This document shows, piece after piece, positions 1 through 57,379 of a DNA stretch of 64,000 nucleotides. Numbering within the stretch: the first letter of the stretch is position 1; every line of letters starts with the position of its first letter. The position numbers and the translations under genes were made by a program. The notes under the pieces were generated by a model. It did not search any database. It saw only the letters and a program-made list of their open reading frames with translations, and had not been told where the DNA came from. Source of the DNA: a virus; IMG/VR virus record IMGVR_UViG_3300020442_002322, positions 24,808 to 88,807 of that record. One strand, given 5' to 3'.

Positions 1-581
1 CTAAACGCAAAATCATTCCTAAATGTAGACTGTGTAATTTGATAGGTCATGCGATAGTGTTTCCAGTTTTCAGCAATATGTTTTACTAGATCAAAAAATA
101 TTTTGTTGACTACTGTTTTTCTAAAAAATACACAAGTAGCCCAATAAAAGTCTACTCCTGTTTCACTAATCTTATCAAACTCTTTGTAGTTTCTTGTTTG
201 TGCAAGATCATAAGCATCTCTATACATACACAAATCATTAGGCTGGTCAAAGCAGTTGTGCAGTTGGCTATCGCAAACAATTACATCACTGTCAACTACT
301 AATGTTTCATCATACGGTGAAAGATCAAAACTTTCAGCTCTTGCTGTATTTTTAAAACTTAGAGATTCAGAACCATGTCCGTTGTTATAAATTTTTGCTG
401 TGTAGTCTTTTACATCTACTTTTATTACTCTGTCAAATAACGTGGTTCTGACATCTATATCTGTAACTATACTTGTAGGAAGATTACAAAATCTTTCCAT
501 ACGCATTGCAAGATTTTTTGCCTGTTTTACATAGTCTATAGATTCGTTATTAAAAGCAAAGACTAATACGCCTTTAGTCAT
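1..581 (-). CDS. Putative GT-A fold glycosyltransferase-like protein (runs off the window start)
   Basis: ATG at 581 (minus), not in the ORF track because it is truncated. Manual translation MTKGVLVFAFNNESIDYVKQA...LSPYDETLVVDSDVIV...YWATCVFFRK has a DxD motif after a hydrophobic strand. Confidence 0.6.
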   Translation of the reverse strand, partial: MTKGVLVFAFNNESIDYVKQAKNLAMRMERFCNLPTSIVTDIDVRTTLFDRVIKVDVKDYTAKIYNNGHGSESLSFKNTARAESFDLSPYDETLVVDSDVIVCDSQLHNCFDQPNDLCMYRDAYDLAQTRNYKEFDKISETGVDFYWATCVFFRKTVVNKIFFDLVKHIAENWKHYRMTYQITQSTFRNDFAF

Positions 582-912
582 TAAGCAACCCTTCTACACT
601 TCTTTTGCTTTTTAACATTTTTCCATATTCTATGCCATATGATGTTGTTGCTCTTTTGTGTGTATTTTTAAGTTGTGTGTAGAAGTCTAACACTTCATCA
701 ATATACAAAGGAACTCCGTTAGCATCAACAATCCAATAAGGCTCTCCTTGGTTGAGTGCGAAAGTTATAAGTTCTAATGTTGTTTTGAAAGCATGACCTT
801 TGTAGTAAAGCATAAGGTCTTTTTCGTACTTTTGTTCTAAAATACGTTTCTTGTTTTTGAATGCTTTTACGTAATCAGCATACTCAAGTGCTTTAGATAA
901 TCGTTTGTCCAT
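574..912 (-). CDS. Hypothetical phage protein (112 aa)
   Basis: ORF with GGAG RBS and an upstream sigma70 promoter; overlaps the start of the next gene. Confidence 0.7.
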   Translation of the reverse strand: MDKRLSKALEYADYVKAFKNKKRILEQKYEKDLMLYYKGHAFKTTLELITFALNQGEPYWIVDANGVPLYIDEVLDFYTQLKNTHKRATTSYGIEYGKMLKSKRSVEGLLND

Positions 913-933
913 TTAGAGCTCCATTTGTATGCT

Positions 934-962
934 AGTTTAGCATATCACGCCCTATTTGTCAA
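934..962 (-). promoter_or_regulatory. Sigma70-type promoter with an overlapping inverted repeat
   Basis: Minus strand TTGACA-17 nt-TAAACT with TGn extended -10; palindrome TATGCTA-gtt-TAGCATA (928-944) covers the -10. Confidence 0.65.
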
Positions 963-965
963 CTA

Positions 966-1907
966 TTAACTGCCCGAAAAGTTTGATTGTCTTGTAATTG
1001 TTGGTGCCGCTACAGATACATATGACCCACTTGCTGTAACATATCCTGCATGATGGGTTAAATTTCCTTGCACATATTCATCAATTGGTACAGTGCCTTT
1101 AGCAGAACTTGTACTACCTGTATCAGCTTCGTCCATTAGGATGCGGAATTCAATAACCGAGTCGCTAATATTTTTTCCTCTAATATAATAGTTGTTATCT
1201 GCATAAACACCACTTCCTGATTTACGGTATAGTTGTTGTTCGCTGTTTGTTAACTGATAGTTACCAATTGCACTGCCGGTACCACTATTGTCACTGCTTG
1301 TGTAGTTGTGGCCAAAACTTACTGTACCAGAATTACTAAGCATTGTTGCCCAGTCGTTTGTTTTTGCAACATTTCCACCTGATGCTGTGCTTACTAGATT
1401 TACTTTGAAAGTTATGCGTCCGCCTGCATTAAAAAAATAACGTCTTGCATTTGCACTAGTAAATGTTGCTCTGTAATATCCATTTAAACTTGCACGCCAT
1501 TGAGAACCGAATGTAAGATTTGCTACTTCATCATCTGTTGTACTTTGTGTAGCATGAAGTCTAAATCTGTTAGGATCTGTTGAAATACTTGTTGTAAAAG
1601 CCTCATAATCTGCATAACCTTTTAGAATGTCACTAGGTTCATTATCATCATCTGCAATTAAATCTTCAACTGCTAGTGTAGCAATTGATGCTCCAGGGCC
1701 TAAATTTACTTGGTGTCTATAGATCCTATCTAAATCCGTAAACAAGTTATTCATATCACTTGCTGTAACAATTTTTTCTACAGGGACTTGATTGCTTGCT
1801 GTACTTCCACCGTATCCGAAGTTTCCAGAACCAACACCTAATACATCTTCGACAGTATTTTGTATGTTGTTGTATCTTACTGCTGTGATAATATCACCAA
1901 CTGCCAT
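966..1907 (-). CDS. Putative virion structural protein (paralog of 1991-2902)
   Basis: MAVGDIITAVRYNN... and FFNAGG motif shared with the neighbouring gene; located in the tail-fibre module. Confidence 0.6.
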   Translation of the reverse strand: MAVGDIITAVRYNNIQNTVEDVLGVGSGNFGYGGSTASNQVPVEKIVTASDMNNLFTDLDRIYRHQVNLGPGASIATLAVEDLIADDDNEPSDILKGYADYEAFTTSISTDPNRFRLHATQSTTDDEVANLTFGSQWRASLNGYYRATFTSANARRYFFNAGGRITFKVNLVSTASGGNVAKTNDWATMLSNSGTVSFGHNYTSSDNSGTGSAIGNYQLTNSEQQLYRKSGSGVYADNNYYIRGKNISDSVIEFRILMDEADTGSTSSAKGTVPIDEYVQGNLTHHAGYVTASGSYVSVAAPTITRQSNFSGS

Positions 1908-1933
1908 TCATTCTCTCCACGTACATTTTATAT

Positions 1934-1962
1934 ACTATAGCAAATTTGTTTTACAAAGTCAA
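1934..1962 (-). promoter_or_regulatory. Sigma70-type promoter
   Basis: Minus strand TTGACT-17 nt-TATAGT with TGn extended -10. Confidence 0.65.
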
Positions 1963-1990
1963 CCATTAATACTTATTTAAATAAAACAAA

Positions 1991-2902
1991 TTACGCTAGA
2001 GAATTGACAACTGCAAAAGCAGGCGCCTCTACATCAACATGAATGCCGCTGGCTCTGACATAGCCCATTTTAGCTTCAAGCAACCCTTGAATAGGTTCAT
2101 CAATCTTGTAACCGCCTGGATTATGGTCGAAATATTCAATTTGTATTTGGATAGTCTTTGAATCAATTTCTTTTGCTCTGATGTAATAGTTGTTATTGCC
2201 ATAAACACCAGTAGCTGATTTTCTAAAAATTTCTTGATAACTTGTTGTAAGATCATAATTACCAATACTCTGAACTACTCCTGTTCCGGAGGTAGTTGTT
2301 TCATTATAATTAAAACTAACTGTACCTGAATTACTTAATATATTTTGCCAATCTTGACTCTTTGCAACACTGTCACCACTTGTTGGTGGATTAGACAAAG
2401 AACTTACAACTGTTAAACTGCCTCCGCTGTTAAAAAAATGTCTACGATGATCAGCATCAGTAAAAGTAATTTTAAATTCTGTATCAATTGGTGCTGTCCA
2501 TTGATTGCGTCTTTGATCTACTTTAGCATCAACGTCTGTACTACTTTGTGTCGATGCTAATAAAAATCTTTGACCAACTGTTTCTATAGTACTAATAATA
2601 GTTTCATAATCTGCAAAACCTTTTGTGACGTCACCGTCACTGTCAGCATCTCCTATAGTATCACCTACTGATATCTGGCTGATACTATTTGGAATGCCAC
2701 CTGTTTGATGCACTCTAATTTTTTTTATATCTTCGAATAGATTGTTTATATCTTGTGCTGTTACTCTATTAGAACTGTTGACAATAGAACTTGATACTGT
2801 TTGACCGTAGCCTTCGTCACCGCTTCCTGTGCCTAATACAGCTTGTACTCTACTTTGAGCATTGTTATACCGCGCCGCGGTAATTAAATCTCCTGATGCC
2901 AT
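1991..2902 (-). CDS. Putative virion structural protein (paralog of 966-1907)
   Basis: MASGDLITAARYNN...FFNSGG...SIGNYDLT aligns by eye with the adjacent gene. Confidence 0.6.
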   Translation of the reverse strand: MASGDLITAARYNNAQSRVQAVLGTGSGDEGYGQTVSSSIVNSSNRVTAQDINNLFEDIKKIRVHQTGGIPNSISQISVGDTIGDADSDGDVTKGFADYETIISTIETVGQRFLLASTQSSTDVDAKVDQRRNQWTAPIDTEFKITFTDADHRRHFFNSGGSLTVVSSLSNPPTSGDSVAKSQDWQNILSNSGTVSFNYNETTTSGTGVVQSIGNYDLTTSYQEIFRKSATGVYGNNNYYIRAKEIDSKTIQIQIEYFDHNPGGYKIDEPIQGLLEAKMGYVRASGIHVDVEAPAFAVVNSLA

Positions 2903-4433: not shown

Positions 4434-6257
4434 TTAAACACTAGATACAAGATCTTGGTCAAATGTCCATGATCCACTGCTTTTCACATACCTTTTCAAT
4501 GCTCTAGATACTGAAACTGTAACAGTACCCGTTGCATCTGTAAATCCAATATCCTGCATTACTGATTCGTTTTGCACTCCTGCTGAATCAACAGCAATAA
4601 ACGATTTTGTAGCAACCGCAGTAATATCAATACCTGTCACGCTTGCACCGCCTAGTGTAGTACAGTGTATACGTGCATAAGTTCCATCTGATACATTAGC
4701 CGCAGGAACTAGATCTTCTAGTACTAGTCCAATTTGTGTATCATTAAGTCCTGTTGAGTCCATACTAAATGAAATACCAGCACCTGCAATTTCTTCATCA
4801 ACATATTGTTTTGTTGCCGCATCTGTTGGGCTACCTGGTACACCTAGTCCGGAAATTCTGTTTGTGTTTGTAAATGTTATATCACCTGCAAGGTCAAAAG
4901 TAAGCCCTCCTAGGCTGTTAGTAATTGTGTTACCATCAATGGTTATGTTATCAACTGTCAATGCTGTAAGTGTGCCAACATTTGTAAGACTAGAATTTAC
5001 AACTCCTGATCCTAGTGTTGTTCCTGTAAGAACATTTGTTCCATCAACCTTGTAACTATTACCACTTGTTACATTTAAATTTTCTGTTGTTGTCCATGCG
5101 TTTGGTGTTTGTCTCCAAGTAAACTTTTTATCTGTGCCAGTAACACGTACAATTAAGCCTGCATCATCTACATCTGCTTCAGGTAAAAGTGTACTATCAC
5201 TTGTTATAGCAAGTTCAATATTTTTATCCTCAACACGCATACTAGAAACATCTATGCTTGTGCTAGAACCTTCTACAATCAAATTGCCTGTAATACGCAT
5301 GTCTCCTGTCAAATCAAGTGTATGTGCAGGTGTACTATTCCAAATACCAACTCTTTTGTTTGTAGCATCTATATAAATTGCATCAGTTGCCTGTGCGCCA
5401 TCTAATGTTGAAGTTATTCTAAATCTTAGATCATTATCTGTTACTGTTTGCGTCATAGCAAAAGTGTCGCCAATAACTTTTTGTTCTAAGTCTGTGTTAG
5501 GTCCGATTGTAACACCGTCACTATTTTGTACTGTAATTGTACCTGCAACAATCTGATCACCTGTTGTGCTTAAGAAACTATCTGCTGTAACTTTTGTGCC
5601 GTTTGATTTTAACAAACTTTTTGCAGAATCAACTGTACCTTCGTAAATAAAATTATCTTTATCAATAATGTTAATACCTTTTTTAACATTTCCTGTTATG
5701 CCATCAATTCTATATCCTACTGCTGGCTCAAATTCAACATTACTACTTACAGCAACTCTAGTTGTACCACTGTTACTATCACCAATGTATAAACTTGCTA
5801 TTGTCCTAGCTCTATCAGTAGTATCTCTTATACTTTCAATTACCCAACCAGACACACCTTGTTGTTTTGTGTAAACTGGTCCTGCCAAAACAGGATCGCC
5901 TACACCATCATAAAAATATATTTGATCATTTACGTTGTCAATCCATAAATCACCAGCAACCATAGCAGGTTGTTCTTTTTGTACAAAAGGTCCACCTACT
6001 GCTTTAAAGATTGATCCTTCATAAACTTTTAAACGGGCATCACTTTTATCCCACCACAGTTGTCCTTCAATAGGATTGCTTGGAGAACTTGTGTTTGCAA
6101 AGTTTTCCAATATTTTAACAAAGTTTTCATTCAATGCTTCGCCAAATCCTGTGTAGTTTCTTCCAATTAATGAAATACTTGTGCTTGCAGTATCTAAAGT
6201 ACCGTCAATTAAGTCTACAAGTAATGTGCCGTCTGTTTTATTAAGTTTATATGCCAT
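4434..6257 (-). CDS. Tail fibre-like virion protein
   Basis: Start reassigned to ATG 6257 (MAYKLNKTDG), with TAATG coupling to the upstream stop; same N-terminal module as its neighbours; DAATKQYVD fibre motif. Confidence 0.7.
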   Translation of the reverse strand: MAYKLNKTDGTLLVDLIDGTLDTASTSISLIGRNYTGFGEALNENFVKILENFANTSSPSNPIEGQLWWDKSDARLKVYEGSIFKAVGGPFVQKEQPAMVAGDLWIDNVNDQIYFYDGVGDPVLAGPVYTKQQGVSGWVIESIRDTTDRARTIASLYIGDSNSGTTRVAVSSNVEFEPAVGYRIDGITGNVKKGINIIDKDNFIYEGTVDSAKSLLKSNGTKVTADSFLSTTGDQIVAGTITVQNSDGVTIGPNTDLEQKVIGDTFAMTQTVTDNDLRFRITSTLDGAQATDAIYIDATNKRVGIWNSTPAHTLDLTGDMRITGNLIVEGSSTSIDVSSMRVEDKNIELAITSDSTLLPEADVDDAGLIVRVTGTDKKFTWRQTPNAWTTTENLNVTSGNSYKVDGTNVLTGTTLGSGVVNSSLTNVGTLTALTVDNITIDGNTITNSLGGLTFDLAGDITFTNTNRISGLGVPGSPTDAATKQYVDEEIAGAGISFSMDSTGLNDTQIGLVLEDLVPAANVSDGTYARIHCTTLGGASVTGIDITAVATKSFIAVDSAGVQNESVMQDIGFTDATGTVTVSVSRALKRYVKSSGSWTFDQDLVSSV

Positions 6258-8299
6258 TATACGTTCCCAGTGTAAATTATCCAATTTAAGGACATAAACG
6301 GATTCATAATGTCCAGAGGTTGCCCTGTAGTTCCTGCTACACTACCACTTGTGGTTGCCGCTTGTCCTTGGTTGTTTCCAGTAGGTGCATCGTATACCTG
6401 TGCTCCTGCTACAGATCCAGATCCTTTTACAGCATCTAATATTGTATAGAACTGTTGTTTTGCACCCGGATCACCAACTTGTAAATCGTGTTCGTGATCT
6501 GGTATTTGATTACCCGCGATTGTTACTTGTTCAACACCGCCTCCGTTACCAAGTTCATTACCTCTTACACCTGTAACTCTGTTTGCGGCTGTACCGCCCA
6601 TATCGTCAAGACCCATAATTGTTCTGCCTCTTAAATCAGGTAAACAAAATAATTGGACACCGTTATCTGAAACTTCGTTACTTGGTTTAAAGTTAAAACC
6701 AATAGCTAGAAATAATTTTTGATAATCTGCTTGTAATACTTCACTACCATCACAAAGTAACCAATGTGTTGGTGCTTGCAATCCTGCATATGGCATTATA
6801 ATGCCCGGCGGGTTGGTAGGAACTTTGTCAAGTAAATTTTCTACACGTAATCTATATAAACCTGTTGCACCCTGGACTCTGTTTACTAAGAATTCGTCTG
6901 AATCTTGTGCTGATGATGTTGAAGTTTTATTTGATATAAAACTATTACTTACAACTGTGTTAAATGTTTTTGTATTGCCGCCTTGTTGTCCGTCAAAAGT
7001 AATTGTAGGAGCACTTACTTCTCCTATCATTTGGAAACTTGTACTGCTAGATAGTTTATCAGCAGTTTGTGATGTACCACTAATGTTACCTGTTAAGTTA
7101 CCTACAAATTGTCCTGTAAATTGTGTGGCGTATATATTCGCATATTTGTTTGCATCTGATCCAATAGTCCTTACATTTGTTGCATCTGGTAATACATTTC
7201 TAGTTTCAATGTTTCCAATAATATCTACATTGCCACCTACGTTTAGGTCTCCTGCAATACCTGCTCCGCCTTTTACAATTAAAGATCCAGTACCAAAGTT
7301 TGTACTTGCTGTAGTACCATCTATAGTTATTGAATCACTTACTTTAATTTTACCTGTTACATCTAATGCTTCACTAGGCGCCGTATTGTTAATACCTATA
7401 TTAGTTGTGCTATCAATACGCATCACTGTTTTAGTTGTGCCTTGATCGTTTACACGAACATCTAAACTAGAACCTGTTGCACTATGAGTAATAACACCTG
7501 TTTGACCTTCAACTGTCAAACGCATTTGGTTACCGCTACCTACAATAATACCTTCGTCACTGTTTACTTTTAATTGGTGTGTAGTTGTGCTAACTTTATC
7601 ACCTCTTAAGAAGTCACTTGCTAACACAGGTGTATCTTCACCAGCAACAATTAAACTTTCTGCTTTTTCAGCAACACCGTAATATTTTCCTGCACCGTCA
7701 CCTGTAATATTTGCTGTGCTTAAATTGACACCAGGTTTAATTTCTGAAAATCCGTTAATAACTGCTCTTGGTGAAAAAGTTTTTGTGCTTATAATTGCAA
7801 TAGGTTTTGCTTCAACTTCAATTTGTAAAACATTGTAGTCAATGTTATCTTGACCACGAATTGTTTTTACATTTACACCTGTATTCAATCCTCCGGAAAA
7901 TTCCGGACCAACTAATGTCCAACCCGAACCTGTATACAAATATAATTGCTGATTGTCTGTATCAACCCAAAGGTCTCCAGTTACACTTGCACTTGCTTGT
8001 GGTGCATTGGTTGCTTTTTTCAATCCGCCTGCCGCAATCCATTGAGTACCATCGTATACTTTAAGTCCTTCTTCTCCAGAAGAACTGTCCCACCAAAGTT
8101 GTCCTTCAACAGGATTTGCTGGTGGAGTAGTGTTTGCAAAATTTTCTAAAAGTTTTAAAAAGTTTTGATTAAATTCAACACCATAACTTGTTGTATTACG
8201 TCCAACTAAGTTTAAACTTGTTTGTGTGTTAATATCATTATCTTCAACAGTTAGACTACCTTTGTTGACCAAATCAGTAAAATTAATAGTATATGCCAT
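6257..8299 (-). CDS. Tail fibre protein with phage tail collar domain (gp12-like)
   Basis: PPGIIMPYAG..APTHWLLCDGS...LFLAIG...LPDLRGR collar motif, HEH motif, and C-terminal MNPFMSLNWIIY. Confidence 0.8.
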   Translation of the reverse strand: MAYTINFTDLVNKGSLTVEDNDINTQTSLNLVGRNTTSYGVEFNQNFLKLLENFANTTPPANPVEGQLWWDSSSGEEGLKVYDGTQWIAAGGLKKATNAPQASASVTGDLWVDTDNQQLYLYTGSGWTLVGPEFSGGLNTGVNVKTIRGQDNIDYNVLQIEVEAKPIAIISTKTFSPRAVINGFSEIKPGVNLSTANITGDGAGKYYGVAEKAESLIVAGEDTPVLASDFLRGDKVSTTTHQLKVNSDEGIIVGSGNQMRLTVEGQTGVITHSATGSSLDVRVNDQGTTKTVMRIDSTTNIGINNTAPSEALDVTGKIKVSDSITIDGTTASTNFGTGSLIVKGGAGIAGDLNVGGNVDIIGNIETRNVLPDATNVRTIGSDANKYANIYATQFTGQFVGNLTGNISGTSQTADKLSSSTSFQMIGEVSAPTITFDGQQGGNTKTFNTVVSNSFISNKTSTSSAQDSDEFLVNRVQGATGLYRLRVENLLDKVPTNPPGIIMPYAGLQAPTHWLLCDGSEVLQADYQKLFLAIGFNFKPSNEVSDNGVQLFCLPDLRGRTIMGLDDMGGTAANRVTGVRGNELGNGGGVEQVTIAGNQIPDHEHDLQVGDPGAKQQFYTILDAVKGSGSVAGAQVYDAPTGNNQGQAATTSGSVAGTTGQPLDIMNPFMSLNWIIYTGNV

Positions 8300-23749: not shown

Positions 23750-26700
23750 TAGTAACCATATCCTCCGCCACTACTGCCGCTACTGCCGCTACTACTGCTA
23801 CTGCCGCTAGAACTACTGCTAGAGCTACTGCTAGAGCTACTGCTAAAACTATATCCGCCGCCTGATTGTGTTGAACTTGATAACGTAGTACTTTGTACGC
23901 CTGCATTTGCTGTAACACTTGCACTTACTACATTTCCTGATGCTTTTAGTTTACTTGCTGTTAATGAATCTATAATTTCTACATCAGCTACAGACGCTGA
24001 ACTAATAAAAATTTCATCTGATTCAGCTTTTATTTCAAACAAACTACCAAAAGTTTGGTTATCTGATTTAGGAACAATTACAACATTTACAATATCAGGA
24101 GTAAGTTCATTCATGATATATGTTGATAGTTCAGTAAAATAAAATGCTTCACCAAATTCCCAATTATCTAAAGTGAAAAATTGATTAATTGCATTTATAA
24201 CTCTTGTTTTAATATCGTTGTCATTGACAACCACATCTGGATTTTTAACTATTTTAAATGTTGCTTGCAATGCTTCGTCCGCTTTTGTTCCAAATAAAGG
24301 TTTGTATTTTACAGGATGATATATTACTTCATCACTTATACTTTTAATTTTTTGTAAGTCTGCACCGTAATTATAATAAAGTTGATCTGAGCTAGGTGGT
24401 AAAGGTTTTGCAACTATATCTCCCTGCAACCATCTTCTATAGTTTATGTCATAGTTTCTTGTTAATAGATACATATCCATTAAATTTGTGCTAGAAGGAT
24501 CAATTCTTGTATTGTAATCAGCATTATGCACATAATGGAATTTAATTCCTTGTCTGCCAACAAACCCTAAGTAGTCGTTTATAACTGCAATATTCTTTTT
24601 GTCATCACTAAGTTTATAAAACAAATTAGTGTCTTTGATGTAAAAAACTTGTCCTGCTGTGTATTGGCTGTATGCTCCTATACCGCCTAACAATTCAAAT
24701 ATTTTGATAGTTTCATCTGAATTGTCCATAAATTTATAATCTTCTACTCCATCACTGCTAGTAAATTTTTCTAAGAAAATAATTTTTTTCAAACTATCTG
24801 TATCTTCAGCAACAATGTCTAAGAAACTATCTGGATTATCAACTACTCCATCATCGTCTGCATCAAAAAATCCGACTTCAACTTTTTTACTATTGACATA
24901 ACCTTCTGCATCTCTGTATTCTTTAACAATTTCAAAGTTATATCCTAATGTAAAAGGATTTGTTACATCTGGTTTGTTATTAATATTCAAAACTTCAATT
25001 TTGTCTTTTACTACTGTACCAGATTTGTTATCATAAATTTTATCAGAGCTGTCATAGTAGAATTTGATTTCTTTATCGCTTTCAAAAACATATCTCAATG
25101 CTCTATAGGTTATAGTATATTTCTCGCCATCTGTTTTAAAATATAATAACCAACTAGCATCTAAGTTTTGATTACTTACATCTCCTGTTTTACCTTGACT
25201 AAATTTGCTTACTGTATCTAAATTTTGATTAGTAATTACACGCCATTCTCTTGTTGTTACGTCATAGCGTAAACCAAAAGTATTTGTTGCGAATGCTTGA
25301 TCTACAATTTGTGTTTTCACACTATCAGTGATAACATTTGCTAACTTAGGTTTTATTTCCTGTAGTATAGGTGCAGTGTCATATGCTTGTGCAGGATTAG
25401 CAGGATCAGGTATAATATCACTTAGTACTATAGGTCCAAGTCCACTGTCAGCAACTGTTGTTCCGTCTGTTACTACACTTATAACTTTTGTCCAAATATA
25501 TTCACTAGCAAAAGGATGATTTGCAGGGCCACTCATCAATTTGTTTTTATCATTAGTCATAAAATGATATCCAGTAGGTGCAACAAATTTTACTAAAGAA
25601 CCTGCTTCGATATATTTTAAATTATTTGCTGTAAATGCACCAACCTTAAACTTTTCTTCACTACTATTAATAAAGTATCCAGTGCTTCTATTAGTTTCTT
25701 TAGTGCTACTAATCCATTTAGCGCCTATATCACTACCAAATATTTTATTGAAGTTTGCAAGATAGTAATTTTTAATTTTTTGATCTCTTACAATAGGTTC
25801 TACAACATTAGTAATGGCACTTTCTATGTCAGTTTGTGTAGCAAAAGTAAAACTATCTTTCAAATCATATTGCTGTTTGTATATAACACCATCATTGCCA
25901 AAAAGATTTGTTTTACTATATTTTCCTGTGGCATCTATTAGATCAAAATATCTTGAAATACCACTTGCAACTCTGTTTACTGTTTTTGCTTTTACTATTT
26001 CTTGACTTATTCCTAAAGGTGCAACATTATAATCTTCAGCTGTAATCATTCTGTTTTGTGTATAGAATGATGAAGGTGCATTTCTTTTAATATTTTCATT
26101 TGTTTCAGAAGGTGCACCGTTACTAACAGTATATTTTAAACTACAAGTTAACTTTAGTGTTTCAGGAACACCTGTTTTGCTAAGATAAGGTATTTCAACA
26201 ATTATACCGTTCATGTCATTTGGCTTAATTGTTGATAATTGATTTGCACTACTTCTATATACTGCTTTAAATCTTCCTTGCGGCAGATTACCAAAAACGC
26301 CGTCACTAAAAACTAAACTTATTCTGTCAGAAACTCTTGTTTTTACTGCATATAAGTTTCTAATGTTTTTATTCAAACTATTGTAAATTACATTATTGCC
26401 TTCAACAGCATCTACTTTTGTCCAATATTCTACTTCTTGCCCTTGATTGTTTAATTTAAACAACCAAACATCTTTGTCGTTAATATTTGTTGCGTCAATA
26501 TCTATTGCTTGATTAGTGCTAGGATTAGTTACACTAAATTGTCCTGAATCTAATGATCCTTGTTTGAATTGAACAAAAAATCCTGTATTTGTACTTCCTG
26601 CACCTTGACCATCATTTCTATAAACAGTAGCAAAACTATTGCCAACAATAGGAATTTCTTCTATAATCTGTCCATCGTTCAAATCACTGCTTACTACTTC

Positions 26701-53595: not shown

Positions 53596-53624
53596 AAAAT
53601 AGGCCCTACGGGGCCTATTTTTTT
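53596..53624 (+). terminator. Rho-independent terminator
   Basis: AAAATAGGCCC-TACG-GGGCCTATTTT followed by a T run. Confidence 0.9.
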
Positions 53625-53639
53625 GACTAAATTTTCTTC

Positions 53640-53670
53640 TTGACTTTCTCTCTCAAATAATATATAAATA
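53640..53670 (+). promoter_or_regulatory. Overlapping sigma70 (TTGACT-17-TATAAA) and late (TATAAATA) promoter
   Basis: Motifs at 53640-53645 and 53663-53670, 10 nt before the ATG. Confidence 0.6.
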
Positions 53671-53680
53671 GACTCAATTT

Positions 53681-54052
53681 ATGAAACACAAACATTTAAT
53701 AATACGAGCGGAAGTTAGTAACCCACCTAGGTACGAGCAAAATATTATTGATTGGACAAAACATTTAATCCAAGACATTGGCATGAAGATTTTGCTAGGT
53801 CCATATGCAACGTACTGTGATAAAGAAGGTAACAAAGGCTATACTTGTGCAACAATTATAGAAACTTCCCACGTTGTTGTACACACATGGGACGAAGTTA
53901 GTCCTAAACTTGTACAACTAGATGTTTATACGTGCAGTGAATTGGATATCAGAACAGTGTTTGACGCACTAGATAAATGGGATCCAATTAAAATAGATTA
54001 CAAATATCTTGATAGAGAAACTAATCTTACAGAAGTATTAGATACTAAATAG
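53681..54052 (+). CDS. speD: S-adenosylmethionine decarboxylase proenzyme (pyruvoyl-dependent)
   Basis: HLII...GYTCATIIETSHVVVHTW.E...QLDVYTC motif. Confidence 0.85.
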   Translation: MKHKHLIIRAEVSNPPRYEQNIIDWTKHLIQDIGMKILLGPYATYCDKEGNKGYTCATIIETSHVVVHTWDEVSPKLVQLDVYTCSELDIRTVFDALDKWDPIKIDYKYLDRETNLTEVLDTK

Positions 54053-54055
54053 ATA

Positions 54056-54102
54056 TACGTTCAGCCCAAGGGCCGGAAGTAGCATAATGCGAAGGAACGC
54101 AC
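54056..54102 (+). promoter_or_regulatory. glnA-type (glutamine-I) riboswitch aptamer
   Basis: CGTTCA-GCCC aa GGGC-CGGAAGTA-GCA taa TGC-GAAGGAACGC matches the recalled glnA motif (P1 CGUU/AACG, GGAAGUA and GAA E-loop strands); preceded by late promoter ACTAAATA (54044-54051). Confidence 0.75.
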
Positions 54103-54125
54103 TCAACTGTAAAAAGGAGAGTGAT

Positions 54126-54278
54126 ATGAACTACAAAGACTTTGAATTAGCTCGCAAGAAACGCAAAACTGAAGAAGCACATAAAGCGATCAAGCGTAAG
54201 CAAATGGTTAGATCATCTAGACCAAGAGCTAAAGAAAACTACTTTGCTAAAAATAATCCACAATTACAAGGAATATAA
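54126..54278 (+). CDS. 50-aa basic peptide downstream of the glutamine riboswitch
   Basis: AAGGAG RBS at 54114-54119; start reassigned to MNYKDFELARKK. Confidence 0.7.
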   Translation: MNYKDFELARKKRKTEEAHKAIKRKQMVRSSRPRAKENYFAKNNPQLQGI

Positions 54279-54298
54279 ACATTTTGGTAAAAAAGTGG

Positions 54299-54327
54299 TT
54301 GACTTTTGCGCTAAAGTTTGCTATATT
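54299..54327 (+). promoter_or_regulatory. Sigma70-type promoter
   Basis: TTGACT-17 nt-TATATT with TGn extended -10. Confidence 0.7.
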
Positions 54328-54333
54328 ACTAAC

Positions 54334-54550
54334 ATATGCTACAAAGACTTAGCTAGTCGATGTATATAGTGCAAGGAAGAGGCGTTTACCAGAGCGTCGA
54401 ACTTGGCTGTAAAGGGGTGGTACCCAGGCATGGTAGTAGAAATACGCTGTGTCACATCGCTCTACCGAGCGGCTACAGGCTCCCTGGTTTCAGAATGGTA
54501 TCTGCGGCGAGGGGTTGGAGGTATAACCGAATCCTCCCTATTTTGCATAT
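54334..54550 (+). ncRNA. Unclassified structured RNA / candidate riboswitch
   Basis: GC-rich, bounded by a promoter and a terminator; ends pair (ATATGC/GCATAT); at least 7 stems and two predicted long-range loop pairings. Confidence 0.7.
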
Positions 54551-54555
54551 TTTAT

Positions 54556-54588
54556 AAAGGTTTACCGGGAGACTGGTAAGCCTTTTTT
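54556..54588 (+). terminator. Rho-independent terminator
   Basis: AAAGGTTTACCGG-GAGA-CTGGTAAGCCTTT followed by a T run. Confidence 0.85.
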
Positions 54589-54589
54589 C

Positions 54590-54618
54590 TTGACATTTTT
54601 ATATTTGTTGTATATAAT
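54590..54618 (+). promoter_or_regulatory. Consensus sigma70 promoter
   Basis: TTGACA-17 nt-TATAAT, 7 nt before ATG 54626. Confidence 0.8.
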
Positions 54619-54625
54619 ATGTTAT

Positions 54626-56347
54626 ATGAAAAAAATATTAATGTTAGTCACAGCTCTGGCTGTGTTTTTTTGTGGCCGGGCTGTCGCAGAGCCCTTAGAG
54701 ATTACTATATACTTGCCACGTACAGCAAGCGATTTAAATTCAACAACATACAGTTATGATTACATTCCGTTAGATGCTCCTATAGCAAATACTAAAGGTG
54801 TTGATATGGTACAAAACGGACCCGCAGGACAAAGCAGTAGTTTGTTTATTCGAGGCACAGAAAGTGATCATAGTTTAATTACATTAAACGGAATTCCTAT
54901 AAAGGACAACAGCACTCCGAGTGGTGCAGATGATCTAAGTCAACACAGTTTGCTAGGAATGAATAATATTGTAGTCATAAAGGGCCCTGTGAGCAACGTA
55001 TACGGGCCTAATGCGGCAGGTGGTGTAGTTGATATGCAAACTACAACAATAGGCGATAATTATGTAGATTTTACAATAGGATCAAACAATTATGTAAGCA
55101 AAGAAATTAGTATTGTTGATAAAAAGTTTGATGATAATCACAACTTTAAACTTGTACTAAATCAAACTACAACAGACGGTATAAGTGTTTATGCTGATGG
55201 TACAGAAGACGATCCGTTAGAAACAAACAGTTACAATTTTAATTGGGATTATTATAGTAACAAGTATGTCCTAACTTTTAATAAAATTTATGATCGCAAT
55301 GAAAGTAATTTAGATAGCAGTAGTGCAGATGTTTTAAACTACACAGGTGATTGGATATGGAACAACAATCAAATCATTTGGCAAGCAGAAGATACAAAAG
55401 TTGTGTTAAACAATAGCACACACGACAGAACTTACAATAAAAATAACGTAGTAGACGAATACAATAGTGAAAATAATTCTTATTTTGTGGAACATAAATT
55501 TAACAAAGAAAATTATGATTATATTATAGGTTGGGATTATACAGAATCTAGTGCAGACTTTGCTACAAACATTAACAATTATCAAAGCAGTGTAAATGAA
55601 AATAGATATACAACTGGTGCTTTTTTCGAATTAGATAAAATGTATTCAAATGGAATAATAAGTTTTAGTAGTAGACTAGATAGTATTAGTGATTTTGACA
55701 ATCAAGTTAGTTCAAGAATAGGCGGAAGTTATAATAACTTTAGAGCAAGTTATTCACAAGGATACAGATTACCTACACTATATGAAATGTATGGTATAGA
55801 CAGCTATGGATACAACGGAAATCCTAACTTAGAAACAGAAGATTTAGATAGTTATGAAATAGGTTATAGAAACAACGGTTTTGATATTGCACTATTTTAT
55901 ATAGAAGAATCTAATCCTATTACATATCAAAGCAGTACATATGTTAATGTAGCAGAAGGTGGAGACAGCAAAGGTGTTGAAGTTAGTTATAATAAAGATT
56001 ATAAAGGGTACTTTTTTAATACTAGCACAACTTATACAGAAGCAAAACTAGCAAATGGCAATGATAAGTTACGCAGACCAAATTGGATCAATAATACAAG
56101 TATTTCAAAAGACATATTTAAAATTAACATGAATTACCATGGAAGTCATAAAGATATTGACGGAACAACCTATGCAACTGTTGATAAACCTAGTGTTACT
56201 ACATTTGATTTTGAAGTAAATAAAACTATAGAAAATAAAATGTTATACTTTGGTTTATACAATATTACTGATGTTGATTATGAACGTCCAGATGGCTACA
56301 ATCAAGATGGTATCAATTTCAAAGCAGGTATAAAAATAATAATGTAA
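54626..56347 (+). CDS. TonB-dependent outer-membrane receptor, BtuB (cobalamin)-like
   Basis: Signal peptide MKKILML...AVA; plug motifs GQSSSLFIRGTESDHSLITLNGIPI and KGPVSNVYGPNAAGGVV; barrel motifs YRLPTLYEMYG, GNPNLETE, LRRP, NITDVDYE..GYN. Confidence 0.85.
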   Translation: MKKILMLVTALAVFFCGRAVAEPLEITIYLPRTASDLNSTTYSYDYIPLDAPIANTKGVDMVQNGPAGQSSSLFIRGTESDHSLITLNGIPIKDNSTPSGADDLSQHSLLGMNNIVVIKGPVSNVYGPNAAGGVVDMQTTTIGDNYVDFTIGSNNYVSKEISIVDKKFDDNHNFKLVLNQTTTDGISVYADGTEDDPLETNSYNFNWDYYSNKYVLTFNKIYDRNESNLDSSSADVLNYTGDWIWNNNQIIWQAEDTKVVLNNSTHDRTYNKNNVVDEYNSENNSYFVEHKFNKENYDYIIGWDYTESSADFATNINNYQSSVNENRYTTGAFFELDKMYSNGIISFSSRLDSISDFDNQVSSRIGGSYNNFRASYSQGYRLPTLYEMYGIDSYGYNGNPNLETEDLDSYEIGYRNNGFDIALFYIEESNPITYQSSTYVNVAEGGDSKGVEVSYNKDYKGYFFNTSTTYTEAKLANGNDKLRRPNWINNTSISKDIFKINMNYHGSHKDIDGTTYATVDKPSVTTFDFEVNKTIENKMLYFGLYNITDVDYERPDGYNQDGINFKAGIKIIM

Positions 56348-56829
56348 TGAACAAATTGCTTTGGTTTCTGTTTTTTGTTTTAATTTTAGCTCTAAGTAGA
56401 ATAATACCACATCCACCTAATTTTACACCTATACTTGCTGTAGCAATTTTTGCTCCACTAGTTATTACTAATATTTGGGCTGTAATACTAGGAGTATTGT
56501 GTGCTATGATTATTGCTGATTTCTATTACGGATTGCATAGTTATATGATATGGACATATAGCACTATTGCAATTAGCACATTAATGGCAACTAGAATAAA
56601 ATTATTGCCAATGATGTTTATAAGTCCTATCCTATTTTTTGTAATTACAAATTTTGCCGTTTGGACATCAGGATATTACGGATATACATTAGTTGGGTTG
56701 ATTGCATGTTATACAGCCGCTATACCATTCTTCAGCATGACACTATTAAGCACAATTTTCTATACATCTTGTTTTTATTTGCTATACAAAGCAACACATT
56801 CACTAAAAACACCTACTAGTTCTTTTTGA
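56347..56829 (+). CDS. Multi-pass membrane protein, DUF6580 / ECF S-component-like
   Basis: SRIIPHPPNFTPILAVAIF, FFVITNFAVW, GLIACYTAAIPFF; 5-6 hydrophobic helices; TAATG-coupled to the receptor gene. Confidence 0.75.
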   Translation: MNKLLWFLFFVLILALSRIIPHPPNFTPILAVAIFAPLVITNIWAVILGVLCAMIIADFYYGLHSYMIWTYSTIAISTLMATRIKLLPMMFISPILFFVITNFAVWTSGYYGYTLVGLIACYTAAIPFFSMTLLSTIFYTSCFYLLYKATHSLKTPTSSF

Positions 56830-56910
56830 TAAATACTTGTGTCAGATAGCGAGCCGCGAGGCGGACTTATGCTGTACCCACAGCGTAGCTCATAGAACGG
56901 GCATTGGACT
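56828..56910 (+). promoter_or_regulatory. Late promoter (GATAAATA) and structured 5' leader
   Basis: GCC-GCGA-GGC (56853-56862), TATGCTGT-accc-ACAGCGTA (56868-56887), GCTC/GGGC (56888-56902). Confidence 0.5.
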
Positions 56911-56929
56911 ACTTATATAGGAGAAAAAA

Positions 56930-57379
56930 ATGGGAAGACCACTAAACAAAAGATATTTTGGAACACCTACAGCAGGTGGCCAAGAAATTAAAGTAAACTT
57001 TCACAATGGAACAGCAGTAAAAGAAGGTTACATTGTAAAGCAAAAAGGCTCAAAAAAATTCGTATGTGAAGAAATTGGAACAGCAGGTGAATTTACTTGC
57101 ACACTAAAAACTGGTATTTTACCAGCGGCTTTGAGTGCAGGCGAAATGACAATTTCTGTAAAAGGCGATGATTCAGAAACTTACGGTGTAAGCAAAATTA
57201 CAGGACGTAAAGCAACTGTAGTAGCACCAAGTGCAACTGGGTCAAACGCACTAGACGGAACATCAATTGCTTGGAACTATTCAACTGCAACTAATGACAG
57301 CGCAGTACAAATAGAAGAAGCTGGTGATGATAACACATTATCAGGTACAGACGACGACGACTTTACAGATGATGCATAA
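56930..57379 (+). CDS. Hypothetical late protein (149 aa)
   Basis: MGRPLNKRYFG...GYIVKQKGSKKF; AGGAG RBS, own promoter and terminator. Confidence 0.75.
   Translation: MGRPLNKRYFGTPTAGGQEIKVNFHNGTAVKEGYIVKQKGSKKFVCEEIGTAGEFTCTLKTGILPAALSAGEMTISVKGDDSETYGVSKITGRKATVVAPSATGSNALDGTSIAWNYSTATNDSAVQIEEAGDDNTLSGTDDDDFTDDA

Follow-up and report, generated by a model that had tools for sequence, protein, structure and literature searches.

A divergent manA-family RNA of marine T4-like phages, probably encoded as a free-standing RNA gene

In the T4-like phage represented by the 88.8-kb IMG/VR virus record IMGVR_UViG_3300020442_002322, a complex folded RNA lies ahead of genes for a TonB-dependent receptor and a DUF6580 membrane protein, an arrangement that raises the question of whether the RNA controls the receptor or is made for its own sake. 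We analyzed the 64,000-nt stretch that covers positions 24,808 to 88,807 of this record (hereafter the window, to which all window coordinates refer), in which the RNA occupies positions 54334-54588 on the plus strand. A first-pass annotation, made from the letters alone, had described an unclassified pseudoknotted RNA and offered two readings of it, either a riboswitch of a new class, controlling read-through into the uptake genes, or an independent phage RNA. Our analyses favor the latter: the element is probably a free-standing gene for an RNA of the manA family that does not gate the receptor, with the folded RNA as the product and, by analogy, contacts between copies in oligomers.

The window RNA is a divergent member of the manA family

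An Rfam search of the 501-nt segment 54200-54700 aligned positions 54347-54547 with manA RNA (RF01745) over the entire model (1-192 of 192), with a score of 45.4 bits and an E-value of 1.5e-10. Searched over the whole 88.8-kb record, the same match has an E-value of 6.2e-12 and is the sole manA match. Relatives were collected with an 18-letter core pattern in which one position was left free; this returned 76 IMG/VR contigs, 74 of which are homologous by blastn. Two contigs (L005 and L044) were chance matches of the pattern and were excluded, and L002, which is the window's own locus, was left out. After identical sequences had been collapsed, 48 distinct sequences of the 76 remained for alignment, together with 53 distinct upstream regions, 18 terminator-type sequences and 44 flank pairs.

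When 19 related viral loci were scanned with Rfam, 12 were found to carry manA at 59.3-76.2 bits. The sole relative in the phage database is a stretch without annotation in Pelagibacter phage Mosig (EXVC030M; MT647606, 108163-108391), which is 73.8% identical to the window, agrees with it in promoter position and fold, and scores 64.0 bits, above the RF01745 gathering cut-off of 55.2. The window RNA at 45.4 bits, like 7 of the 19 scanned relatives, among them its closest, lies below this cut-off, which is an operational annotation threshold and not a biological feature. We nevertheless file the window RNA under manA because of transitive homology and shared structure. On sequence grounds it is a divergent manA member, belonging to a subfamily found in marine T4-type phages that resemble pelagimyophages. 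The label "unclassified" is thus refuted by the full-length match and by the scores of Mosig and the 12 relatives, and the Rfam search points to a catalogued family and no new class.

The family thereby gains a well-supported sub-threshold subfamily of at least 74 viral contigs plus phage Mosig. Our literature search found no paper that places manA in pelagimyophages or treats it as a free-standing gene, although supplementary files may list such cases; the accessible portion of the paper describing phages Melnitz and Mosig (PMC9004378) contains neither the word "manA" nor the word "Rfam."

Covariation supports the nine-helix manA fold

The segment 54325-54590 folds at −95.9 kcal/mol (z −4.05), and none of 200 shuffles folded as well. 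This fold energy, together with the promoter and terminator scan described below, indicates that the physical feature seen in the first pass is real. For comparative analysis, the manA helices, defined in window coordinates, were projected onto a MAFFT alignment comprising the 48 distinct homologues, the set to which homologue counts refer below unless another is named. The 55 model pairs are paired in 93.9% of cells and 35 of them show a compensatory change. Sliding the 3′ partners by 1-3 columns lowered the pairing to 35-45%. Among 500 shuffles, none matched the observed covariation on four of five measures, while 36 did so on the remaining one, further pair types. Moreover, RNAalifold, which was not given the model, returned the same core helices, with 42 pairs, 25 of which carry compensatory changes.

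The RNA contains the complete manA helix order, that is, a 5′ hairpin (P1), a closing helix (P2), P3, P4 enclosing P5 to P7, P8 and P9, with loops numbered after their helices (Table 1). Several stems picked out in the first pass covary on the 48 homologues: GGCGTT/AGCGTC in P3, CTGTA/TACAG in P4, GGCATGGT/GCTGTGTC with its GTA-GAAA-TAC cap in P6, and the CGCTC-tacc-GAGCG hairpin in P7. The proposed CAGA/TCTG stem is present but has weaker support, with 81.6% of cells paired. The stem ATATGC/GCATAT that joins the ends recurs with other letters in promoter-type homologues (ATAAGCAA/TTGCTTAT, ATAAGTAA/TTACTTAT and TAATACCAA/TTGGTATTA); at least 6 bp are found in 24 of the 44 distinct flank pairs, single cases being weak because the flanks are AT-rich, and the stem is missing from homologues fused to a transfer-messenger RNA (tmRNA) gene. 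In contrast, a 10-bp helix proposed between GAGGGGTTGG and CCGAATCCTC (54509-18/54527-36) is paired in just 61.7% of cells, compared with 99.6% for P9, and the pairings supported in its place are 54517-21/54533-37 and 54482-88/54508-14. The latter, the outer helix of P8, covaries at 7 of 7 pairs, though only four of its pairs are standard in the window itself. The suggested ACCAG:CTGGT pseudoknot likewise did not hold, each of its pairs being formed in just 10-36 of the 48 sequences.

The analysis also adds elements that had escaped the first reading, namely P1, P2, the helix 54372-75/54402-05 and a GGG/CCC hairpin with the loop GUGGUA. The P1 site has a hairpin of at least 5 bp in 48 of 48 homologues; its sequences are unrelated, and MAFFT aligns it badly. 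A protein-coding reading was considered and rejected: the window has a 65-codon open reading frame (ORF) at 54360-54557, but an open plus-strand frame spans the core in only 7 of 48 homologues.

Comparison with classic manA RNAs of T4-like cyanophages shows, beyond the common helix order and full-length model match, a shared GUGGU loop on P5, an ACC loop on P7 and the sequence AGUG after the closing helix. There are, however, differences. The junction after P2 reads GCAAGGAAGAG in the window and ACUGAAUAA in classic members. P6 is longer in the window subfamily and has constant G-U pairs and a GAAA loop, whereas classic P6 loops vary. L5 and L7 are GUGGUG and ACCA in the classic set, compared with GUGGUA and UACC in the window subfamily, and the classic L8/L9 pair CUGU/ACAG is replaced by UGGUA in L8 facing the ACC loops L3, L7 and L9. 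The outer stem is an extra feature of the window RNA. The family is already known, and the window element differs from classic members in its junction, longer P6, loop set, outer stem and free-standing layout.

Table 1. Positions of the RNA, its helices and surrounding features in the window
Feature	Position	Strand	Details
gp23-type major capsid gene	ends 53577		followed by terminator 53600-53617
AdoMet-decarboxylase gene	53681-54052		
Glutamine riboswitch (RF01739)	54056-54103		51.1 bits, at Rfam gathering level; precedes 63-codon ORF
Sigma70-type promoter, early type	−35 TTGACT 54299-54304; −10 TATATT 54322-54327	+	17-nt spacer; 10/12; TG before −10
manA-family RNA gene (ends predicted)	54334-54588	+	~255 nt
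Outer stem joining the ends	ATATGC 54334-54339 / GCATAT 54545-54550	+	fold; same-place stems in homologues
P1, 5′ hairpin	54340-54364 (54340-43/54361-64 and 54346-48/54356-58)	+	model match, fold
P2, closing helix	54365-69/54538-42	+	3 of 5 pairs with compensatory change
P3	54372-75/54402-05 and 54381-86/54393-98	+	loop L3 UUACCAGA at 54386-93; covariation
P4, junction stem	54407-12/54473-78	+	encloses hairpins P5, P6 and P7
P5 (GGG/CCC)	54414-16/54423-25	+	loop L5 GUGGUA
P6	54427-34/54446-53 and 54436-38/54443-45	+	GAAA tetraloop 54439-42
P7	54457-62/54467-72	+	loop L7 UACC 54463-66
P8	outer 54482-88/54508-14; inner 54491-94/54501-04	+	loop L8 AAUGGUAU; covariation
P9 hairpin (GGAGG/CCTCC)	54517-21/54533-37	+	99.6% paired; 11-nt loop with ACC
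Intrinsic terminator	54556-54588 (stem 54556-54585)	+	13-bp stem, GAGA-type loop, six-T run; predicted RNA 3′ end
Separate promoter of receptor cassette	54590-54618	+	TTGACA-17-TATAAT, 12/12; not part of the RNA
TonB-dependent receptor gene	54626-56347	+	Pfam Plug and barrel
DUF6580 (membrane) protein gene	56347-56829	+	Pfam DUF6580
Late-promoter-like box GATAAATAC	56828-56836	+	ahead of 149-aa gene
freshwater-2 RNA (RF02980)	56853-56932	+	ahead of 149-aa gene

The RNA has its own predicted transcription unit

Three signals named in the first pass were borne out by scanning. The consensus scan recovered the sigma70-type promoter ahead of the RNA (TTGACT-17-TATATT, 10/12), a terminator whose 13 pairs lead into a T run, and, just after that terminator, another promoter with the full consensus (12/12). 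Transcription is predicted to start near 54334. The RNA is not in the 5′ untranslated region of a protein gene here, as the 13-bp terminator and the 12/12 promoter intervene.

The promoter is a recurrent feature, matching at 9/12 or better and at a fixed distance in 36 of the 53 distinct upstream regions of homologues. In the other upstream regions the RNA lacks a promoter and begins within ~10-60 nt of the 3′ end of a tmRNA gene, which is of the phage two-piece type (alpha-type, permuted); such fusions account for 7 of the 19 scanned loci (L003, L007, L012, L013, L029, L037 and L069), where the manA RNA is probably cotranscribed with the tmRNA. A terminator follows P9 by 39-50 nt in 23 of 69 assessable places, with stem sequences that are unrelated between groups.

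We propose that host RNA polymerase would start at the sigma70-type promoter ~7 nt 5′ of the outer stem, that the RNA would fold into nine helices, comprising the 5′ hairpin, the closing helix, a four-way junction that carries three hairpins, and another three hairpins, with the outer stem joining its ends, and that the strong intrinsic terminator would end the transcript 6 nt past the outer stem. The folded RNA itself would be the product, and its loops would provide kissing-loop and tetraloop-receptor contacts between copies, giving, by analogy, pentamer-based oligomers.

Most manA RNAs lie at the predicted start of transcription units with diverse downstream contexts

The 69 assessable places comprise the window, Mosig and 67 contigs; from 76 places, five cut by contig ends before P9 and two with less than 60 nt of downstream sequence were dropped, and the 3′ end of the motif was located by a hairpin-based rule. 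The RNA is followed by a terminator in 23 of these places, by an ORF starting at 2-35 nt without a terminator in 27, and by an ORF at 72-228 nt in 19. Downstream products with Pfam matches include rubrerythrin, redoxin/AhpC, gp32, Hsp20, a cold-shock protein, a late-transcription coactivator and CsgF, in addition to several unknowns, and fall into unrelated groups. The Mosig copy has its own TTGACA-17-TATATT promoter and lies, without a terminator, ~25 nt before the rubrerythrin gene, whereas the window copy ends at a terminator. In 25 related loci gp23 lies just 5′ of the RNA, and the fuller of these gp23-linked loci carry, 3′ of the RNA, homologues of the 149-, 317-, 112- and 166-codon genes of the window.

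For comparison we collected manA loci of the classic cyanophage type with a pattern derived from the Rfam consensus, obtaining 101 distinct sequences, 94 of them with enough flanking sequence. A promoter scoring at least 10/12 is present in 86 of the 94, and the RNA is followed by an ORF within 60 nt in 47, a terminator in 25, a tRNA gene directly in 6 and other arrangements in 16. Classic and window-type RNAs alike tend to open a sigma70-type unit (86/94 and 36/53) and have mixed downstream contexts that include terminators. Taken together, the promoter and downstream counts in both sets characterize manA as a promoter-proximal module that lacks an immediately following ORF in about one-third of cases; roughly a third of manA copies are not gene leaders, having their own terminator or a tRNA gene next.

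The tRNA genes concerned (Asn or Gly) are on the same strand and begin 5-19 nt 3′ of the RNA (L083, L098, L109, L126, L157 and L162). A tRNA gene directly behind manA is hard to square with translational control.

These contexts bear on the possibility that manA is a generic cis module, for example a stabilizer or processing element, with the window copy serving as the 3′ trailer of a glutamine-riboswitch peptide mRNA or as a leader whose gene has been lost. Such a role would suit the constant position of the RNA, which in every case either opens a sigma70-type unit or comes immediately 3′ of a tmRNA gene (7 of 19 scanned loci), the variety of ORFs and tRNA genes that it precedes, and the lack of a terminator after the 63-codon gene upstream of the window copy. 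In the gp23-downstream group, however, nothing lies between the RNA and its terminator, and the RNA's own promoter is kept; furthermore, the constant loops and junctions exceed the needs of a stabilizing hairpin. We thus consider a generic cis module unlikely. An independent phage RNA is the better reading of the promoter, RNA, strong terminator and separate promoter that follow one another in the window, a layout found in 23 of the 69 assessable places when the window is counted.

Together with the sub-threshold score given above, several observations weigh against a free-standing RNA gene whose product assembles. Both ends of the RNA, the promoter and the terminator alike, are sequence predictions. 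As no terminator follows the 63-codon gene 5′ of the RNA, the RNA could alternatively be a 3′ trailer of that gene. The 27 of 69 places with the classic leader layout keep a cis-regulatory role possible for the family. Contigs from four seawater RNA-library runs of one study match the locus closely (17-30 differences per ~1,000 bases, 97-98% identical) and span 53600-54594 in two runs and 53600-54675 in the other two; being assembled, they count as presence only, and their ends are read as assembly breaks rather than RNA ends because they overlap neighboring contigs by ~28 letters. The loop complementarities are constant in the subfamily, so the loop partners are ambiguous and provide no covariation evidence. 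Finally, self-assembly is known only in vitro and from other members, to which the helix numbers used here were matched by helix order.

The terminator is not part of a conserved switch

The first-pass annotation had pointed out that 54480-88 could pair with the terminator, as in a terminator/antiterminator switch. The window does allow this pairing (−12.4 kcal/mol, z −1.3), which relatives do not keep. In the 18 distinct terminator-type sequences, the corresponding pairing reaches z < −2 in one, contig L041 (−5.25), and lies between −2.0 and +0.6 in the rest. When the whole RNA was scanned for duplexes with either arm of the terminator, no recurrent partner region emerged, and the terminator does not overlap the 3′ strands of the aptamer. 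Because there is no conserved pairing, no recurrent partner and no such overlap, and because the stems are unrelated between groups, we conclude that a plain terminator ends a discrete RNA. In L041 (~5969-6308, minus strand) the 5′ arm of P8 finds a perfect 9-bp complement in the 5′ arm of the terminator (z −5.25, −4.2), which may be a chance match or a locus-specific switch.

A rival reading is a ligand-sensing riboswitch whose regulated terminator would let a metabolite set read-through into the genes for the receptor and the DUF6580 protein; manA is catalogued as a riboswitch candidate. Weinberg et al. 2010 (PMC2864571) rated manA "Y" as a cis-regulatory element and "y" as a riboswitch candidate, and marked a doubtful "pseudoknot?" that corresponds to L8-L9. 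The energy of the window pairing, the perfect arm/terminator match in L041 and the 27 places where the RNA lies directly before an ORF would all fit this model. The lack of conservation of the pairing tells against it, as do the receptor's own 12/12 promoter and presence 3′ of the RNA in two loci only, the unrelated genes downstream elsewhere, and the classic manA RNAs that precede tRNA genes or nothing. The homologues thus lie in unrelated contexts and have no conserved antiterminator, the combination that had been named beforehand as refuting a riboswitch. With a known family in place of a new class, gating of the uptake genes by a riboswitch is, in our assessment, quite improbable.

The receptor cassette is a neighbor and not a target of the RNA

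The best NCBIfam match of the receptor is TonB-B12, though at 140.9 bits compared with a cut-off of 599.7. The TonB receptor and DUF6580 pair is found 3′ of the RNA in only two loci, the window and L053. The L053 cassette (38-2217, minus strand) shows the order terminator-like hairpin, TTGACA promoter, receptor gene. In relatives, the manA terminator is followed directly by the GATAAATAC box and a freshwater-2 RNA, whereas in the window these come after the DUF6580 stop. From this shift it follows that the receptor pair is a cassette inserted between the manA terminator and the late-promoter-like box. The two genes would thus be a separately promoted insertion, placed ahead of the late promoter that serves the next structural gene. 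The cassette, which brings its own sigma70 promoter in the window and in L053, is a neighbor of the RNA and not its target.

The observation that canonical cobalamin-riboswitch motifs are absent was confirmed: no cobalamin family matched 54200-54700 at E-values up to 10, and none reached gathering score in the window. A new cobalamin riboswitch class matched to a BtuB-like receptor would have in its favor the TonB-B12 match and the adjacency of RNA and receptor, which was all that the first reading had to go on. Set against this are the low receptor score, the origin of the cassette as a later insertion with its own promoter, the missing cobalamin families and contexts that are mostly without a B12 link; such a riboswitch is extremely improbable. 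A false lead is thereby removed: the locus holds no new B12 riboswitch, and its TonB-receptor cassette is not gated by the RNA.

Constant loops suggest contacts between RNA copies

What, then, might a free-standing manA RNA do? The loops are the most constant parts of the subfamily. L5 is GUGGUA, L6 is GAAA, L8 contains GGUAUC and L3 contains ACC or ACCA in 48 of 48 homologues, while L7 is UACC or ACC in about 42-43 of 48 and L9 contains ACC in 44 of 48, with four lacking it. The RNA thus presents two GGUA-type loops (L5 and L8), three ACC-type loops (L3, L7 and L9) and a constant GAAA tetraloop. L3 fits L8 by 4-5 bp in all 48, and L8 and L9 have just 3-5 complementary bases. The TACC:GGTA complementarity noted in the first pass is conserved but never varies, and, as the same GGU loops are also matched by two further ACC loops, it is one of several possible pairings. 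In the classic set, L8 and L9 covary, CUGU occurring with ACAG in 89 of 89 cases and AUGU with ACAU in 9 of 11.

A recent cryo-electron microscopy (cryo-EM) preprint (10.64898/2026.07.01.735769) describes manA RNAs that self-assemble in vitro, at 10 mM MgCl2 and about 3 mg/mL, into pentamer-based decamers, octamers and a 60-mer cage. Copies reportedly join through kissing loops between L5 and L7′ and between L8 and L9′ or L3 and L8′, as well as through a GNRA-receptor interaction of L6 with P6′. The window RNA, with complementary L5/L7 (GGUA/UACC) and L3/L8 (UACCA/UGGUA) loops and a constant GAAA L6, resembles these RNAs, in particular the manA_pho34_A767 set, its identity with which is presumed. 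By analogy, we infer that the loops of the window RNA may pair between molecules (L5-L7′ and L3-L8′). The non-leader layout, together with the 2026 report of cages in vitro, points to the RNA as a possible product in its own right.

A catalytic role in the phage, such as self-cleavage, would also be consistent with the size, complexity and constant junction nucleotides of the element, the only features that speak for it. The RNA matches no ribozyme family, however, and the accessible part of the preprint reports intact oligomers and mentions no cleavage, making catalysis very unlikely.

Returning to the free-standing RNA gene, a tentative and on balance doubtful extension is that the RNA, made early as a free 255-nt molecule, would use the L3/L8, L5/L7 and GAAA contacts to form pentamer-based oligomers or cages that serve the phage in infected cells. 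If so, the manA assemblies seen in vitro would be the biological form and the family would consist of structural RNA genes, not riboswitches. A cage might serve, for example, as a scaffold, as a decoy or as a shell for sequestration, and the fusions of manA 3′ of tmRNA and 5′ of tRNAs or of stress and DNA-binding genes would tether cargo RNAs to the assemblies. The cage idea is testable in a cultured system, phage Mosig on Pelagibacter HTCC1062.

Neighboring features of the locus

At Rfam gathering thresholds, just the glutamine riboswitch and the freshwater-2 RNA are reported in the whole window, and a search of the window for tRNA and tmRNA genes found none. The 63-codon basic ORF 3′ of the glutamine riboswitch has no Pfam or NCBIfam match. 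The riboswitch and ORF form a pair (54056-54278) that also lies 5′ of the manA RNA in L008, L022, L039, L043 and L053, and L043 has two tandem glutamine aptamers.

A CsgF-like (curli secretion) gene is situated ~420 nt 3′ of manA, after a terminator, in L061, L064 and L071; curli pore genes in pelagimyophages are treated in PMC9004378.

The methods of PMC9004378 give T4-type late promoters as TATAAAT. The freshwater-2 RNA of the window lies between the late-promoter-like box and a conserved gene of 120-195 codons with no assigned function, the product of which starts MGRPLNK in the window. Because of this placement, and despite its name, freshwater-2 looks like a late-gene leader of marine T4-like phages. 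Copies are present in the relatives L008 (5566-5649), L023 (8086-8168), L054 (5966-6036) and L058 (914-1000).

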